From Escherichia coli O127:H6 str. E2348/69 (lineage in GTDB: Bacteria > Pseudomonadota > Gammaproteobacteria > Enterobacterales > Enterobacteriaceae): a stretch of 64,000 nucleotides of DNA. Below are positions 3,747 to 60,721 of the stretch, in pieces; within the stretch, counting starts at the first letter, position 1; every line of letters starts with the position of its first letter. The translations under genes were made by a program, and so were the position numbers. Below the pieces are notes generated by a model. The model was not told the DNA's origin, did not search any database, and saw nothing but the letters and a program-made list of their open reading frames with translations. Location: the NCBI RefSeq assembly GCF_000026545.1, contig NC_011601.1; one strand, given 5' to 3'.

Positions 3747-3764
3747 GCCCCCTGCGAAGGGGGC
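3747..3764. terminator. GC-rich hairpin (gccccctgcgaagggggc) between convergent ulaF and yjfY, flanked by A/T runs; likely bidirectional intrinsic terminator
   Basis: Perfect 7-bp stem with 4-nt loop, preceded by tttttcaaaaaaa. Confidence 0.6.
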
Positions 3765-16431: not shown

Positions 16432-17053
16432 AACTGCCATCCGGCTGGCGGGTAAACAGGACCTGTTGATTATTCCCCGTATCAATGGTTAAGCCCGTCA
16501 CCACGCCGCTGGCGTTCTGGCGGATTTTCACCATCTGCCCGTTTTGCAAATTACTCAGTGGCTTATCCGCGCCTTCTACCTGCGCCATGGCATAGACATC
16601 GGTAGCGGGCAGTCCGTGGTCGCGGAACAGCTGCGCCATCGTTTTACCGGGTTCGACACGATAGGAGCGCCATTGATTATCAATTCCGCTATCTGGCTGG
16701 AATGGTTGCGTATGGGTGGTTTGCGGCTGCTCTTCTGGCTGGCCTTCCTGTATTGGTTCTGGAGCGACCGGAGCCACCTGATCAGGATCATTTTGTGGCG
16801 TGACTAATTGCGCCCGCAGCTGTTCTTCTGTCGGTGGTTGTGATTGCGACTGAATATCTAACTGCGCTTCACGCGTCACCACCGGCGCGTTGGGCGTATC
16901 ATCAGATGGAAGCAGAAATCCGACCACCAATACAATGGCGGCAATAATGATCCCCCGACGATGCATCGGCGGCAGCGGGTCCATGAAGCGAAAATTGTCC
17001 GGCGCGTGCCAGACTTTCTCCAGGGTTGGTTTTAGTTCAAAGCGCCCGGGCAT
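16415..17053 (-). CDS. ytfB: Cell-division protein with OapA/LysM-like C-terminal domain
   Basis: 212-aa product [34 protein letters not shown]... with Pro/Gln-rich linker; 3' end overlaps the TetR gene 3' end. Confidence 0.85.
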
Positions 17054-17270
17054 GGTTTCCTCCTGCTCCGCGTCTTGTTCCTCAATCATAGCCTATGAAT
17101 AAGCTAACGCTATGATGTCCGTGGTAAACCCGCCTTTATTATATTCATACGGGATATTGCTATTGTTTCTTTTTCCCCGGGATTTGTCATCATTCCCGCG
17201 ACAAAGTTTTACCCAAAGAAGTGTGGCTGATATGCTGCCCGCTACTTTATACCCTAAGAAAGGAAATACG

Positions 17271-17891
17271 ATGACCACCCCAACTTTTGACACCATCGAA
17301 GCGCAAGCAAGCTACGGCATTGGTTTGCAGGTAGGGCAACAACTGAGTGAATCTGGCCTGGAAGGGCTGCTGCCAGAAGCACTGGTTGCAGGCATTGCCG
17401 ATGCGCTGGAAGGCAAACATCCGGCTGTTCCGGTTGATGTGGTGCACCGCGCGCTGCGTGAAATCCACGAACGCGCCGATGCCGTTCGTCGTCAGCGTTT
17501 CCAGGCGATGGCTGCTGAAGGTGTGAAATACCTGGAAGAAAACGCCAAAAAAGAAGGTGTAAATAGCACCGAATCTGGCCTGCAATTCCGCGTGATCAAC
17601 CAGGGTGAAGGCGCAATTCCGGCACGTACCGACCGCGTTCGTGTTCATTACACCGGAAAACTGATCGACGGCACCGTGTTTGACAGCTCCGTTGCTCGCG
17701 GCGAGCCAGCTGAATTCCCGGTTAACGGCGTGATCCCTGGCTGGATTGAAGCACTGACTCTGATGCCGGTAGGTTCTAAATGGGAACTGACTATCCCGCA
17801 GGAACTGGCATATGGCGAGCGTGGCGCAGGCGCGTCCATCCCTCCGTTCAGCACCCTGGTGTTTGAAGTCGAACTGCTGGAAATCCTCTAA
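17271..17891 (+). CDS. fklB: FKBP-type peptidyl-prolyl cis-trans isomerase
   Basis: 206-aa product [22 protein letters not shown]...[15 protein letters not shown]...FEVELLEIL. Confidence 0.95.
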
Positions 17892-17919
17892 GCAGCGCAT
17901 TCTGTTCCCCTCGAACCAG

Positions 17920-19469
17920 CTGTCTCTTATACACAAATCCCCACCCGGGGATTTGTGATGTCTGTCAGTCTGCTTTAGGGGGACTCTTTCCATCCGGTAG
18001 TTTCCTTCCTCCCCGGCAGCGATTTTTTGAACTTTTTCCTCACCTGTTGATCTTCTCTTATATTTCATTTTCTTCGGGTCTGTTATGGTACTTTCTGATT
18101 GTTATTCATGGGCTAACGAGCAGTTTGGACATGCCCGTCTCGGTGATCCGCGTCGTACACGACGCCTTGTGTCACTGGCCTCTTCTCTCGCTCAGCATGC
18201 AGGTCTTTCTATTGTGAAATCATCCCAGTCCACTGCTCAGGTTGAAGGTGCGTACCGCCTGATACGTAACCCGTCTGTGTCCCCGCAAGCCATTGCCGAA
18301 GCCGGATTTACCGCCACTGTAAGGGCATGTGAGGCTCATCCGCTGCTCCTCGCGCTGGAAGACACCACCACCATTAACTTCAGTCACAGTACGGCATCTG
18401 ATGACCTGGGGAATACCACCACTAACCCGAAGACGCGCGGGCTGCTGGCTCACTCTGTCCTGATGTACGCCCCCGACAGCGCCCTGCCAGTCGGTCTTAT
18501 CGAACAGCAGCGCTGGAGTCGTGCCACGGACACCTACGGTGTTAAGCACCAGCGAAAAGAACGTCCCTATGAAGAAAAAGAAAGTTACCGCTGGCAGCAG
18601 GCTTCGGAGCGCATGGCCGAACGGCTGGGGGAGATACAGAAACGGGTAATCACTGTCTGTGACCGGGAAGCGGATATCTGGCATTACCTGCATTATAAAG
18701 TCAGCCACGGGCAGCGCTTCGTGGTGCGTGCAGCACAGAATCGCCGGCTGGAAGAAGCACCCGGCAAGCTCTTCGAACTGCCGGAAGTCCTGGCAACCGC
18801 GGGAAGCCACACGCTGAATGTGATGCAAAAAGGCGGGCGGGCAGCCCGCCAGGCCCGGATGTTCATCAGTTACAGCGAAGTCAGCATAAAAAATCCCGAC
18901 AACAGCGGCCAGGCGCTCCCGCTCACGTATGTCTGTTGCCGGGAGCAGGCAGAGGACGGCGCCTGCTGGCATCTGCTGACGTCAGAAAAAGTGGCGAGTG
19001 CCGCCGATGCGCGACGTATCGTCAGCCATTACGAGCGACGCTGGCTGATAGAGGAATACCACAAGGCGTGGAAAAGTGGTGGTACATGTGTGGAATCGCT
19101 GTGAATGCAGACCCGGGATAACCTCGAGCGCATGGTGGTTATCAAGGCGTTTATCGCGGTGCGGGTGCTGGGCCTGCGGCAGGGCGGTATCAGTGAAGAA
19201 ACACAAAATGACAGCTGTGAGAAAATACTGACGCCGACAGAGTGGAAACTGCTGTGGGTTAAGCTGGAAGGAAAACCGCTTCCGTCACAGATGCCGACAC
19301 TGAAATGGGCCTGTCTGAAACTGGCGAAACTGGGGCGATGGCATGACAGCAAACGCACCGGTCGCCCCGGTTGGGTAGTCATGTGGGATGGCTGGTTCAG
19401 ACTTCAGGATATGGTTGAGGGTTACCTGGTGATGAAGTCTCTTGATCAGGAGATCTGATCAAGAGACAG
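17920..19469 (+). mobile_element. IS50/Tn5-like insertion sequence (IS4 family) with diverged transposase
   Basis: Left end CTGTCTCTTATACACAAAT (2 mismatches to the Tn5 outside end as I recall it); right end is the exact reverse complement of the Tn5 inside end CTGTCTCTTGATCAGATCT; flanked by direct repeat cgaaccag; internal Tn5-Tnp-like ORF. Confidence 0.85.
18085..19458 (+). pseudogene. Tn5-like transposase interrupted by an in-frame TGA at 19102-19104 (ORFs 18085-19104 and 19105-19458, same frame)
   Basis: N-fragment LGDPRRTRRLV...EGAYRLIRNP...LALEDTT...CDREADI...RRWLIEEYHKAWKSG closely resembles Tn5 Tnp including the DDE positions; C-fragment DNLERMVV...AVRVLGLRQ... continues the alignment after the stop. 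Confidence 0.7.
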
Positions 19470-19757
19470 CGAACCAGAGGGGAGCAGACATTCAGCAATA
19501 AACCCTTCAGTTTGCCAAACGGCGCTATTTTGTGTTGCAAAGACCCCGTAAGCGTGTATTTTTGTGAGCTGTTTCGCGTTATCACCGTGATATGACACTC
19601 ACTTTAAACATAAAATTAACATTAGATCTAAATCTTAGTATTCATACCGCGTATTGTTACCTAATATCGATGAGTCCCGATACAGATTCGTCGTATCATA
19701 GACTGACTAAAGGCCGTAGAGCCTGAACAACACAGACAGGTACAGGAAGAAAAAAAC

Positions 19758-21170
19758 ATGGTAGATCAGGTAAAAGTCGTTGCCGATGATCAGGCTCCGG
19801 CTGAACAGTCGCTACGGCGCAATCTCACAAACCGACATATTCAGCTTATTGCCATTGGCGGTGCCATTGGTACAGGGTTGTTTATGGGGTCCGGCAAAAC
19901 GATTAGCCTTGCCGGGCCGTCGATCATTTTTGTTTATATGATCATTGGTTTTATGCTCTTTTTCGTGATGCGGGCAATGGGGGAATTGCTGCTTTCGAAT
20001 CTGGAATACAAATCTTTTAGTGACTTCGCTTCCGATTTACTCGGGCCGTGGGCAGGATATTTCACCGGCTGGACCTACTGGTTCTGCTGGGTTGTAACCG
20101 GTATGGCAGACGTGGTTGCCATTACCGCCTATGCGCAATTCTGGTTCCCTGGGCTTTCTGACTGGGTTGCTTCGTTATCCGTGATCATTCTGTTACTGGT
20201 TCTAAACCTCGCCACGGTAAAAATGTTCGGTGAGATGGAGTTCTGGTTTGCGATGATCAAAATCGTCGCCATCGTGTCGCTGATTGTTGTCGGCCTGGTC
20301 ATGGTGGCGATGCACTTTCAGTCACCGACCGGTGTGGAAGCATCATTTACACATTTGTGGAATGACGGCGGCTGGTTCCCGAAAGGCTTAAGCGGCTTCT
20401 TTGCCGGATTCCAGATAGCGGTTTTCGCTTTCGTGGGGATTGAGCTGGTAGGTACAACAGCTGCGGAAACCAAAGATCCGGAGAAATCACTGCCACGCGC
20501 GATTAACTCCATTCCGATCCGTATCATTATGTTCTACGTCTTCTCGCTGATTGTGATTATGTCCGTGACGCCGTGGAGTTCGGTAGTCCCGGAGAAAAGC
20601 CCGTTCGTTGAACTGTTTGTGTTGGTAGGTTTGCCTGCGGCTGCCAGCGTGATCAACTTTGTGGTGCTGACCTCTGCGGCGTCTTCCGCTAACAGCGGTG
20701 TCTTCTCTACCAGCCGTATGCTGTTTGGCCTGGCCCAGGAAGGTGTGGCACCGAAAGCGTTCGCTAAACTCTCTAAGCGCGCAGTACCCGCGAAAGGGTT
20801 GACCTTCTCTTGTATCTGTCTGCTCGGCGGCGTGGTGATGTTGTATGTGAATCCCAGCGTGATTGGCGCGTTCACGATGATTACAACCGTTTCCGCGATT
20901 CTGTTTATGTTTGTCTGGACGATTATCCTTTGCTCGTACCTGGTGTATCGCAAACAGCGTCCTCATCTGCATGAGAAGTCGATCTACAAGATGCCACTCG
21001 GCAAGCTGATGTGCTGGGTATGTATGGCGTTCTTTGTGTTTGTTCTGGTGTTGTTGACACTGGAAGATGACACCCGCCAGGCGCTGCTGGTTACCCCGCT
21101 GTGGTTTATCGCGCTGGGGCTGGGCTGGCTGTTTATTGGTAAGAAACGGGCTGCTGAACTGCGGAAATAA
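19758..21170 (+). CDS. cycA: D-serine/D-alanine/glycine:H+ symporter
   Basis: 470-aa APC-family permease MVDQVKVVADDQAPAEQSLRRNLTNRHIQLIAIGGAIGTGLFMGSG... Confidence 0.95.
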   Translation: MVDQVKVVADDQAPAEQSLRRNLTNRHIQLIAIGGAIGTGLFMGSGKTISLAGPSIIFVYMIIGFMLFFVMRAMGELLLSNLEYKSFSDFASDLLGPWAGYFTGWTYWFCWVVTGMADVVAITAYAQFWFPGLSDWVASLSVIILLLVLNLATVKMFGEMEFWFAMIKIVAIVSLIVVGLVMVAMHFQSPTGVEASFTHLWNDGGWFPKGLSGFFAGFQIAVFAFVGIELVGTTAAETKDPEKSLPRAINSIPIRIIMFYVFSLIVIMSVTPWSSVVPEKSPFVELFVLVGLPAAASVINFVVLTSAASSANSGVFSTSRMLFGLAQEGVAPKAFAKLSKRAVPAKGLTFSCICLLGGVVMLYVNPSVIGAFTMITTVSAILFMFVWTIILCSYLVYRKQRPHLHEKSIYKMPLGKLMCWVCMAFFVFVLVLLTLEDDTRQALLVTPLWFIALGLGWLFIGKKRAAELRK

Positions 21171-43951: not shown

Positions 43952-45325
43952 ATGCGCATTCATATTTTAGGAATTTGTGGCACGTTTATGGGCGGTCTGG
44001 CGATGCTGGCGCGCCAGTTAGGCCATGAAGTAACGGGTTCGGACGCCAATGTGTATCCGCCGATGAGCACCTTACTTGAGAAGCAAGGTATTGAACTGAT
44101 TCAGGGTTACGATGCCAGCCAGCTCGATCCACAGCCGGATCTGGTGATTATTGGTAACGCCATGACCCGTGGAAATCCGTGTGTGGAAGCGGTACTGGAA
44201 AAAAACATCCCTTATATGTCAGGTCCGCAGTGGCTGCACGATTTTGTGCTGCGCGACCGCTGGGTGCTGGCCGTTGCCGGTACACACGGCAAAACCACCA
44301 CGGCGGGAATGGCGACCTGGATTCTGGAACAATGCGGTTACAAACCGGGATTTGTGATCGGCGGTGTGCCGGGGAACTTTGAGGTTTCGGCGCGTCTGGG
44401 CGAAAGCGATTTCTTTGTTATCGAAGCGGATGAGTACGACTGCGCCTTCTTTGACAAACGCTCTAAATTTGTCCATTACTGCCCGCGTACGCTGATCCTC
44501 AACAACCTTGAGTTCGATCACGCCGATATCTTTGACGACCTGAAAGCGATCCAGAAACAGTTCCACCATCTGGTGCGTATCGTTCCGGGGCAGGGTCGTA
44601 TTATCTGGCCGGAAAATGACATCAACCTGAAACAGACCATGGCGATGGGCTGCTGGAGCGAGCAGGAGCTGGTGGGCGAGCAAGGTCACTGGCAGGCGAA
44701 AAAGCTGACCACCGATGCTTCCGAATGGGAAGTCTTGCTGGATGGCGAAAAAGTGGGCGAAGTGAAATGGTCGCTGGTAGGCGAACATAATATGCACAAT
44801 GGCCTGATGGCGATTGCAGCGGCTCGCCATGTTGGTGTAGCGCCGGCAGATGCCGCTAACGCGCTGGGTTCGTTTATTAACGCTCGTCGCCGCCTGGAGT
44901 TGCGTGGTGAAGCGAATGGCGTCACGGTATATGACGATTTCGCCCATCACCCGACGGCGATTCTGGCAACGCTGGCGGCGCTGCGTGGCAAAGTTGGCGG
45001 TACGGCGCGCATTATTGCCGTGCTGGAGCCGCGTTCGAATACCATGAAAATGGGGATCTGCAAAGACGATCTGGCACCTTCATTAGGTCGTGCCGATGAA
45101 GTCTTCCTGCTGCAACCGGCACATATTCCGTGGCAGGTGGCAGAAGTGGCAGAAGCCTGCGTTCAGCCTGCACACTGGAGTGGCGATGTGGATACGCTGG
45201 CAGATATGGTGGTGAAAACCGCTCAGCCTGGCGACCATATTCTGGTGATGAGCAACGGCGGTTTTGGTGGGATCCATCAGAAACTGCTGGATGGGCTGGC
45301 GAAGAAGGCGGAAGCTGCGCAGTAA
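43952..45325 (+). CDS. mpl: UDP-N-acetylmuramate:L-alanyl-gamma-D-glutamyl-meso-diaminopimelate ligase
   Basis: 457-aa product MRIHILGICGTFMGGLAMLARQLGHEVTGSD... (Mur ligase family). Confidence 0.95.
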   Translation: MRIHILGICGTFMGGLAMLARQLGHEVTGSDANVYPPMSTLLEKQGIELIQGYDASQLDPQPDLVIIGNAMTRGNPCVEAVLEKNIPYMSGPQWLHDFVLRDRWVLAVAGTHGKTTTAGMATWILEQCGYKPGFVIGGVPGNFEVSARLGESDFFVIEADEYDCAFFDKRSKFVHYCPRTLILNNLEFDHADIFDDLKAIQKQFHHLVRIVPGQGRIIWPENDINLKQTMAMGCWSEQELVGEQGHWQAKKLTTDASEWEVLLDGEKVGEVKWSLVGEHNMHNGLMAIAAARHVGVAPADAANALGSFINARRRLELRGEANGVTVYDDFAHHPTAILATLAALRGKVGGTARIIAVLEPRSNTMKMGICKDDLAPSLGRADEVFLLQPAHIPWQVAEVAEACVQPAHWSGDVDTLADMVVKTAQPGDHILVMSNGGFGGIHQKLLDGLAKKAEAAQ

Positions 45326-60586: not shown

Positions 60587-60721
60587 TTATCTCCTGACGC
60601 CTGGGCAAAAAAAAGCCCCTCGATTGAGGGGCTGGGAATGGGTGATCAACGGGAAGAAAAACGGCAGGCCAGCGTCTTTTTTCAGACGCGGTAAGACAAA
60701 ATGTCGAACACACTGAACCAT
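60587..60721 (-). CDS. pyrL: pyrBI operon leader peptide
   Basis: 44-aa product MVQCVRHFVLPRLKKDAGLPFFFPLITHSQPLNRGAFFCPGVRR immediately upstream of pyrB. Confidence 0.85.
   Translation of the reverse strand: MVQCVRHFVLPRLKKDAGLPFFFPLITHSQPLNRGAFFCPGVRR
60607..60632 (-). terminator. pyrBI attenuator terminator hairpin (gcccctcaatcgaggggc + U8 on the transcribed strand)
   Basis: 7-bp GC stem followed by a run of 8 T on the minus strand, inside the pyrL 3' region. Confidence 0.8.

Follow-up and report, generated by a model that had tools for sequence, protein, structure and literature searches.

The 64,000-nucleotide stretch of the chromosome of enteropathogenic Escherichia coli (EPEC) E2348/69 that we analyzed (the window, in whose positions all coordinates are given) carries a copy of the insertion sequence (IS) ISEc13 between fklB and cycA. 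The insertion as such is unremarkable and had been annotated before. We conclude with good confidence that ISEc13 came to lie in the fklB 3′ hairpin loop owing to a preference for the symmetric target CCCCY-N8-RGGGG, and that this copy later lost transposase function, probably provides a substitute 3′ end for fklB, and leaves the cycA promoter in place.

Results

Target preference of ISEc13

Junction sequences were collected from CP148541.1, a close relative of E2348/69 with ten ISEc13 copies, from other transposase variants, and from sixteen other annotated places in E. coli. Aligned on the IS end, the 54 unique half-sites had C at positions −13, −12, −11, and −10 in 45, 49, 46, and 40 cases, respectively, and a pyrimidine (Y) at position −9 in 48 cases. 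CCCCY stood exactly in register in 22 half-sites, where the background rate is 0.0007 per position (binomial P, ∼6e-55). This logo and the in-register excess of CCCCY define the full target as 5′-CCCCY-N8-RGGGG-3′, with the 8-bp (sometimes 9-bp) duplication located between both runs. In the restored window of 62.4 kb, the motif had a single occurrence, the hairpin downstream of fklB. These results bear on the explanation that ISEc13 inserts nearly at random, like Tn5, and struck the hairpin by luck, an accident that the first-pass annotation of this DNA had implicitly assumed. One locus alone shows no preference, and the Tn5 consensus is generally known to be weak; however, the half-site logo, the occupation of the sole perfect motif in 62 kb, and independent insertions at an identical base (see below) refute a chance landing, to which we assign next to no probability.

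At 15 of the 24 unique full sites, at least five of the eight arm pairs were complementary, compared to 3.3% of random positions (P of about 6e-17). Examples are the satP/mog terminator (AAATCCCC / CCGCTCGG / GGGGATTTTTTT) and the ybaY/atl site (TAACCCTCT / CCGCCCGG / AGAGGGTTA), and further palindromic targets lie at agp/yccJ, symE/DUF1127, yehA/rcnB, and aaeR/tldD. The insertions are usually found 14 to 30 nt beyond a stop codon, often in terminators between convergent genes, and are about equally frequent in both orientations relative to the 3′ end of the adjacent gene (an informal count over annotated contexts, from which no bias is claimed). Such a distribution could also arise by selection without targeting, if only insertions in harmless intergenic hairpins survive; most sites are indeed intergenic and just beyond stop codons, where insertions are tolerated. 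Selection would explain neither the fixed register, with CCCCY 8 bp from each IS end, nor the C-run rule, and the same base was hit repeatedly and in both orientations. Moreover, the intragenic sites, in trhA with the full motif and in ygfK with half of it only, argue against selection alone making the pattern, and we consider this explanation very improbable.

Two unoccupied sites in the window match the relaxed motif CCCY-N8-RGGG, at 3748–3763 (CCCCCTGCGAAGGGGG) and 60616–60631 (CCCCTCGATTGAGGGG). An A-run precedes each, so that both look like − strand terminators; with their shorter effective loop, they are candidate targets of ISEc13. A GC-rich interspersed repeat with AGGGGCGAGGGGACCGTTCG / CCCTCACCC...CCCTCTCCC hosts several ISEc13 sites (right flanks of loci L011 and L051, left flanks of L027 and L025), and the element may use this repeat family as multiple landing pads. 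In the papers that our searches returned on ISEc13, all of which mention it in passing, and on terminator targeting by the IS4 family, we found no description of its target choice, ISfinder being outside this search.

The hairpin at the 3′ end of fklB

Positions 17,000 to 20,000 of the window contain fklB, the 1,550-bp IS, and cycA, all co-oriented. The features are as follows, with the open reading frame (ORF), untranslated region (UTR), and transcription start site (TSS) assignments taken from the sources in parentheses.

17271–17891, + strand: fklB coding sequence, FKBP-type peptidyl-prolyl isomerase (ORF list; RefSeq annotation of the identical E2348/69 locus)
17901–17912, + strand: left arm of the fklB 3′ hairpin, TCTGTTCCCCTC, with half-site CCCCT at 17907–17911 (sequence; fold of the restored site)
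17912–17919: left target-site duplication, 8 bp, CGAACCAG, comprising the last stem pair and the 6-nt loop (sequence; empty site contiguous in 5,409 genomes)
17920–19469, + strand: ISEc13, IS4 family, IS50 subgroup, 1,550 bp, ends CTGTCTCTT...AAGAGACAG (annotated ISEc13, terminal repeats, Tn5 homology)
17932–17957, + strand: IS-borne hairpin CACAAATCCCC-ACCC-GGGGATTTGTG, 11-bp stem, facing incoming fklB transcription (folds; relatives)
18085–19104, + strand: transposase ORF, N-terminal 339 codons, ending at a premature TGA at 19102–19104 (ORFs; comparison with intact copies)
19105–19458, + strand: rest of the transposase frame beyond the stop, Tn5 dimerization domain (ORFs; Pfam)
19470–19477: right target-site duplication, 8 bp, CGAACCAG (sequence)
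19477–19488, + strand: right arm of the fklB 3′ hairpin, GAGGGGAGCAGA, with half-site AGGGG at 19478–19482 (sequence; fold)
19490, + strand: equivalent of the K-12 Term-seq "primary" fklB 3′ end, MG1655 4429596 (PMC7815308 Supplementary file 1)
19560–19581, + strand: CRP site predicted at −114 to −93 in the cycA promoter, on the cycA side of the insertion (PMC8948829, mapped onto the window)
19662–19674, + strand: cycA −10 element TAATAT at 19662–19667 and TSS at 19674, with an 84-nt 5′ UTR (fusion coordinates of PMC8948829; sequence)
19758–21170, + strand: cycA coding sequence (ORF list; RefSeq annotation)

The hairpin starts 10 nt past the fklB stop codon and is split by the IS, as the first-pass annotation had recognized. 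With the IS and one repeat deleted, the site reads ...TCTGTTCCCCTCGAACCAGAGGGGAGCAGA..., a sequence found uninterrupted in 5,409 of the 5,426 complete E. coli genomes; this reconstruction of the empty site is thus correct. The inverted repeat proposed earlier, cccctc-gaacca-gagggg, is present within a larger stem, TCTGTTCCCCTC-GAACCA-GAGGGGAGCAGA, of 12 pairs including one U·G, with a 6-nt loop. The IS does part the two arms, at 17901–17912 and 19477–19488, and the CCCCTC core of the left arm sits at 17907–17912 rather than at 17905–17910, where it had been placed.

As + strand RNA, the restored hairpin had a folding energy of −24.9 kcal/mol (z = −5.8) and none of 200 shuffled sequences folded as well, which places it well beyond chance; its − strand version was weaker (z = −2.0). 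A U-tract is absent 3′ of the stem, where the next sequence is CATTCAGCAATAAA, and the hairpin is therefore not a canonical intrinsic terminator. A consensus scan for intrinsic terminators revealed nothing terminator-like in the K-12 fklB-cycA spacer, and neither that spacer nor window positions 17000–20000 had an Rfam hit with an E value up to 1. Term-seq of MG1655 grown in LB to an optical density of 0.4 assigned a "primary" fklB 3′ end to position 4429596 (Adams et al. 2021, PMC7815308 Supplementary file 1). The 3′ end is base 51 of the 61-nt strings in that table, a layout verified on thrL position 256, and the K-12 fklB end is located 2 to 3 nt past the last stem pair. The Rho-termination table of the same paper has no entry with coordinates beginning 44294 to 44298. 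Stable hairpins of unrelated sequence were present at the corresponding position behind the fklB stop codon in Salmonella, Enterobacter, Klebsiella, Atlantibacter, and Cronobacter, the last being a canonical terminator with a T-run, and their presence in these five other genera identifies the 3′-end hairpin as a conserved feature of fklB. These results support the assignment of the hairpin as the mark of the fklB transcript 3′ end, as either a terminator or a protector of a processed end. Of the earlier conditional suggestion that it served as the fklB 3′ structure or terminator, the first part is supported; a role as a canonical intrinsic terminator is not, given the lack of a U-tract and of a flag in the scan.

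Term-seq also reported an "orphan" 3′ end at MG1655 4429862 in two growth conditions, equivalent to window position 19756 and 2 nt before the cycA ATG, which suggests that transcription ends early in the cycA leader or that an RNA is derived from the 5′ UTR. A strong 3′ end was located within ytfB at MG1655 4428652 (32,337 and 96,021 reads), ∼100 nt into the ORF, corresponding by our own mapping to window position 16988, approximately, on the − strand. The FklB protein, WP_000211225.1, is called fklB in some RefSeq records and "bamJ, BamJ family beta-barrel-assembly machinery protein" in newer records from the Prokaryotic Genome Annotation Pipeline (PGAP).

Anatomy of the ISEc13 copy

An annotated "IS4-like element ISEc13" that matches the IS at 100% identity lies between fklB and cycA in O127:H6 E2348/69 (NZ_LT827011.1), where PGAP calls the transposase gene a pseudogene with an internal stop. 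The TGA at 19102–19104 is CGA in intact ISEc13 copies, and the dimerization domain is lost. Full-length ISEc13 copies are present in 873 complete genomes, and the intact transposase is WP_000244358.1. The transposase is a full-length homologue of the Tn5 transposase in PDB (phmmer, E = 6e-84, residues 6–453), with the Pfam domains Tnp_DNA_bind, DDE_Tnp_1, and Dimer_Tnp_Tn5. In this single-ORF DDE transposase, the segment RRWLIEEYHKAWK aligns with the YREK-motif region HRWRIEEFHKAWK. Members of the IS50 subgroup have terminal inverted repeats starting 5′-CT, lengths of 1350 to 1550 bp, and direct repeats of 8 to 9 bp (PMC2266710). ISEc13 has the ends CTGTCTCTT / AAGAGACAG, a length of 1,550 bp, and a duplication of 8 bp here and 8 to 9 bp elsewhere; by size, ends, duplication length, and transposase, it is a genuine member of the IS50 subgroup within the IS4 family. 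The premature TGA deprives this copy of autonomy, and its intact ends make mobilization in trans still conceivable.

Recurrent insertions and rearrangements

Junctions of the type fklB-ISEc13-cycA were present in four of the 5,426 genomes: three assemblies of E2348/69 and strain B19374. In B19374, ISEc13 lies at the identical base and in the same orientation, and the duplication on both sides, CGAGCCAG, matches the loop of its own lineage. The 600-bp flanks are 94.8% and 93.7% identical to the window, up to the IS, whereas the IS is 99.87% identical. The own-loop duplication, the divergent flanks, and the near-identical IS show that the B19374 insertion is independent. B19374 (L002) is recorded as "E. 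coli" from seawater, with fklB-cycA flanks ∼94% identical to those of E2348/69. Flanks so divergent are unusual for E. coli, and B19374 may represent a cryptic lineage of Escherichia. At other sites, different genomes carry ISEc13 in opposite orientations (L009 and L033 versus L026; L004 versus L034), or different strains have 8-bp versus 9-bp duplications (L006 versus L045; L041 versus L047).

In CP148541.1, fklB-ISEc13 is followed by a flank from the lptG side, and ISEc13-cycA is preceded by another upstream flank (L010 and L011). The transposase gene is intact in these copies, and the two junctions are without matching duplications, which points to recombination between two ISEc13 copies as the event that separated fklB from cycA. 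The rearrangement was probably an inversion.

Likely consequences for fklB and cycA

An 11-bp IS hairpin located 13 nt inside the left end is the dominant structure in folds predicted for the fklB-IS junction and for ∼30 others. A replacement 3′ end is expected on this basis, and fklB transcripts would probably gain a new structured 3′ end ∼40 to 65 nt further downstream rather than run on freely. One candidate feature was set aside: AGGGGG at IS positions 58–63 pairs with the upstream CCCCY in ∼30 of 33 predicted ISEc13 junction folds, but relatives of the element show no equivalent pairing and a G-run within 100 nt is likely enough by chance, making this "surrogate arm" a weak idea.

The cycA ATG is 288 bp from the IS end, and the insertion lies at −205 relative to the cycA TSS. 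A study of the cycA promoter used the region from −223 to +117, with fusion coordinates that imply an 84-nt 5′ UTR (PMC8948829). With the IS end at −205 and both the TSS and the predicted CRP site downstream of it, the cycA promoter is essentially intact. No sigma-70-like outward promoter was found within the IS. No + strand terminator-like site was found in 17200–19800, and hence none between the transposase frame and cycA; read-out from the IS into cycA is possible. Translation stops prematurely in the transposase gene and ∼350 nt of untranslated RNA follow, which may favor Rho termination in this tail.

We also weighed the more disruptive outcome, in which a true fklB terminator was destroyed and fklB transcription crosses the whole IS to drive or perturb cycA. 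The mapping of the fklB 3′ end to the hairpin in K-12, the shared orientation of fklB, the transposase gene, and cycA, and the lack of terminator-like sites on the + strand of 17200–19800 are all compatible with it. Set against these observations, the native hairpin has no U-tract, a strong hairpin waits 13 nt inside the IS, the untranslated RNA past the premature stop would favor Rho termination, and cycA has its own CRP-dependent promoter downstream. On balance, we regard such read-through as improbable.

On the − strand, antisense to the transposase gene, five terminator-like sites occur in 18588–19005 (2.7 ± 1.8 expected), for example GGCGGGCTGCCCGCC followed by CGCCTTTTTG at 18850–18836. 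These sites might stop transcription that enters from the right IS end.

Relatives of ISEc13

The exact 26-nt left end of the IS had no match in contigs from one genome per species. A protein-based scan, likewise with one genome per species, identified 29 loci with transposases 42 to 53% identical and the same kind of ends, in Alishewanella, Alteromonas, and several metagenome-assembled genomes. Among the elements with two readable junctions, most lay within palindrome loops, and the majority of these palindromes had an A-run on one side and a T-run on the other, as in bidirectional terminators. The clade as such thus seems to target hairpin loops. The stems differed by element type: ACCCC/GGGGT, ACCCG/CGGGT, AGCCA/TGGCT, AGGCT/AGCCT, and GGCCC/GGGCC. 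At the same left-end position as in ISEc13, the closest relatives have a hairpin followed by T6-7 that is terminator-like by eye. The terminator scan did not flag these left-end hairpins either, probably because an A·T stem extension consumes the T-run. One relative (L070) has flanks that are inverted copies, GGCAAAGCC on the left and GGCTTTGCC on the right, with no direct repeat, and in two others (L058 and L066) the flanks are swapped, which suggests IS-IS recombination or inversion in those genomes too.

We put at about even the chances of a broader proposal: that a Tn5-like clade of the IS50 subgroup, comprising ISEc13 and the 42 to 53% identical relatives in Alishewanella, Alteromonas, and other Proteobacteria, homes to 3′-end hairpin loops, each member with a symmetric half-site rule of its own and with a terminator-like hairpin just inside the left end that can substitute for the host terminator split by the insertion.

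The variety of stems raises the question of what the transposase recognizes. We infer the manner of recognition, which could be of sequence, with a monomer per half-site, or of structure and deformability. Under the second option, the target would be an extruded hairpin or cruciform, or the symmetric deformability of terminators, and CCCCY would be simply what terminator stems look like in E. coli. The relatives, with their palindromes of different stems mostly flanked by A-runs and T-runs, and the 15 of 24 ISEc13 sites that are good inverted repeats fit this explanation. Conversely, ISEc13 sites with imperfectly complementary arms keep C-rich half-sites on both sides (e.g., CCTCC ... AGGGG), the window terminators at 3748 and 60616, with C/G stems and a shorter loop, are unoccupied, and the use of both orientations at one site speaks against a single-strand hairpin mechanism. 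The C-rich half-sites without complementarity, along with both orientations, favor symmetric recognition of duplex DNA by ISEc13, and we view structure-based targeting as the less likely option, though the most credible of the alternatives considered.

Discussion

Several points weigh against the conclusion that a target preference placed ISEc13 in the fklB hairpin with mild consequences. The sample is a non-exhaustive set of 54 unique half-sites and 24 unique full sites from few genomes, and the intragenic ygfK site has just one good half-site. The Term-seq fklB end derives from one condition (LB, optical density of 0.4) in K-12 rather than in E2348/69; the effects on expression in E2348/69, deduced with this K-12 end, are probably mild. 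The left-end hairpin of ISEc13 has no clear U-tract and was not flagged by the terminator scan. The stem that it shares with the relatives has eight conserved pairs, showed no compensatory changes in a covariation test, and overlaps the conserved transposase-binding end, so that its conservation may have another cause and conservation of structure is unproven.

Taking this evidence together, we propose the following course of events. ISEc13, as a cut-and-paste element of the Tn5/IS50 type, would have inserted into the hairpin at the 3′ end of the fklB transcript, within its loop, since the sequence there matches the symmetric target of the element perfectly. A staggered 8-bp cut between the C-run and the G-run would have duplicated the loop and the closing pair and left the arms on opposite sides of the IS. 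The change of CGA to TGA, with loss of the dimerization domain and of transposase function, would have followed the insertion. Transcripts of fklB would now extend 13 nt into the IS and reach the 11-bp IS hairpin, their probable substitute 3′ end, and cycA would retain its own promoter and predicted CRP site, with nothing terminator-like between the transposase frame and the gene.

The ends of ISEc13, CTGTCTCTT...AAGAGACAG, resemble those of Tn5, which makes 9-bp duplications with a weak consensus within the duplicated bases. ISEc13 differs by its mostly 8-bp duplications and by strong C-run and G-run half-sites outside of them. The two systems share transposases that are homologous over their full length with the same three domains, and the size and 8- to 9-bp duplications of ISEc13 fit the subgroup (PMC2266710). 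IS186, also of the IS4 family, is similar in that its E. coli target is symmetric and built of GC-runs, with strong hot spots. Its G-run followed by a C-run lies inside a duplication of 10 to 13 bp, as in the IS186B direct repeat GGGGTGCCCCC (PMC12102499), whereas in ISEc13 the order is reversed, with the C-run first, and the two runs flank the 8-bp duplication, so that its target is not of the IS186 type. IS231A is another IS4-family element with insertion specificity (PMC2266710). It shares with ISEc13 the family and a symmetric consensus, of differing polarity and register. The IS231A target consensus is GGG(N)5CCC, with a preference for an inverted repeat, a duplication of 10 to 12 bp, and hosts among the Firmicutes.

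Outside the IS4 family, IS1272/TnSha1 of staphylococci (IS1182 family) enters terminator hairpins after genes, with repeated independent hits on the same hairpin in both orientations (PMC4923244). ISEc13 likewise enters inverted repeats and terminator hairpins. IS1272 cuts the stem, makes no duplication, partially deletes the target, and has no primary-sequence consensus (PMC4923244); in contrast, ISEc13 cuts around the loop, duplicates 8 to 9 bp, leaves the two arms in place, and follows the CCCCY consensus. IS1397, ISKpn1, and other elements that target the repetitive extragenic palindromes and bacterial interspersed mosaic elements (REP/BIME) also insert into extragenic palindromes (PMC1525189). 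Those targets are a repeated family, whereas the fklB hairpin is single-copy and ISEc13 targets unrelated hairpins that share a short motif.

What is new is a strong symmetric target rule that sends a Tn5-like element to gene-end hairpins, apparently clade-wide, and for ISEc13 itself this rule is a modestly new variation on the behavior of the IS4 family. The insertion between fklB and cycA is probably benign, as it occupies a favored site, leaves both genes intact, and brings a replacement hairpin. The rule predicts where ISEc13 lands, with approximately one perfect site per 60 kb here and 27 to 30 matching places per E2348/69 chromosome, and it accounts for repeated insertions at one position, which strain typing might otherwise mistake for a sign of shared ancestry. 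Recombination between ISEc13 copies rearranges the chromosome, and fklB and cycA were parted in this way in the relative of E2348/69. The findings mark out 3′-end hairpins as safe harbors and offer a starting point to understand or engineer target choice in the Tn5 transposase family, which is widely used in genomics. If the proposal for the clade is true, its hairpin homing would be a safe-harbor strategy as yet undescribed among Tn5-type DDE transposases.

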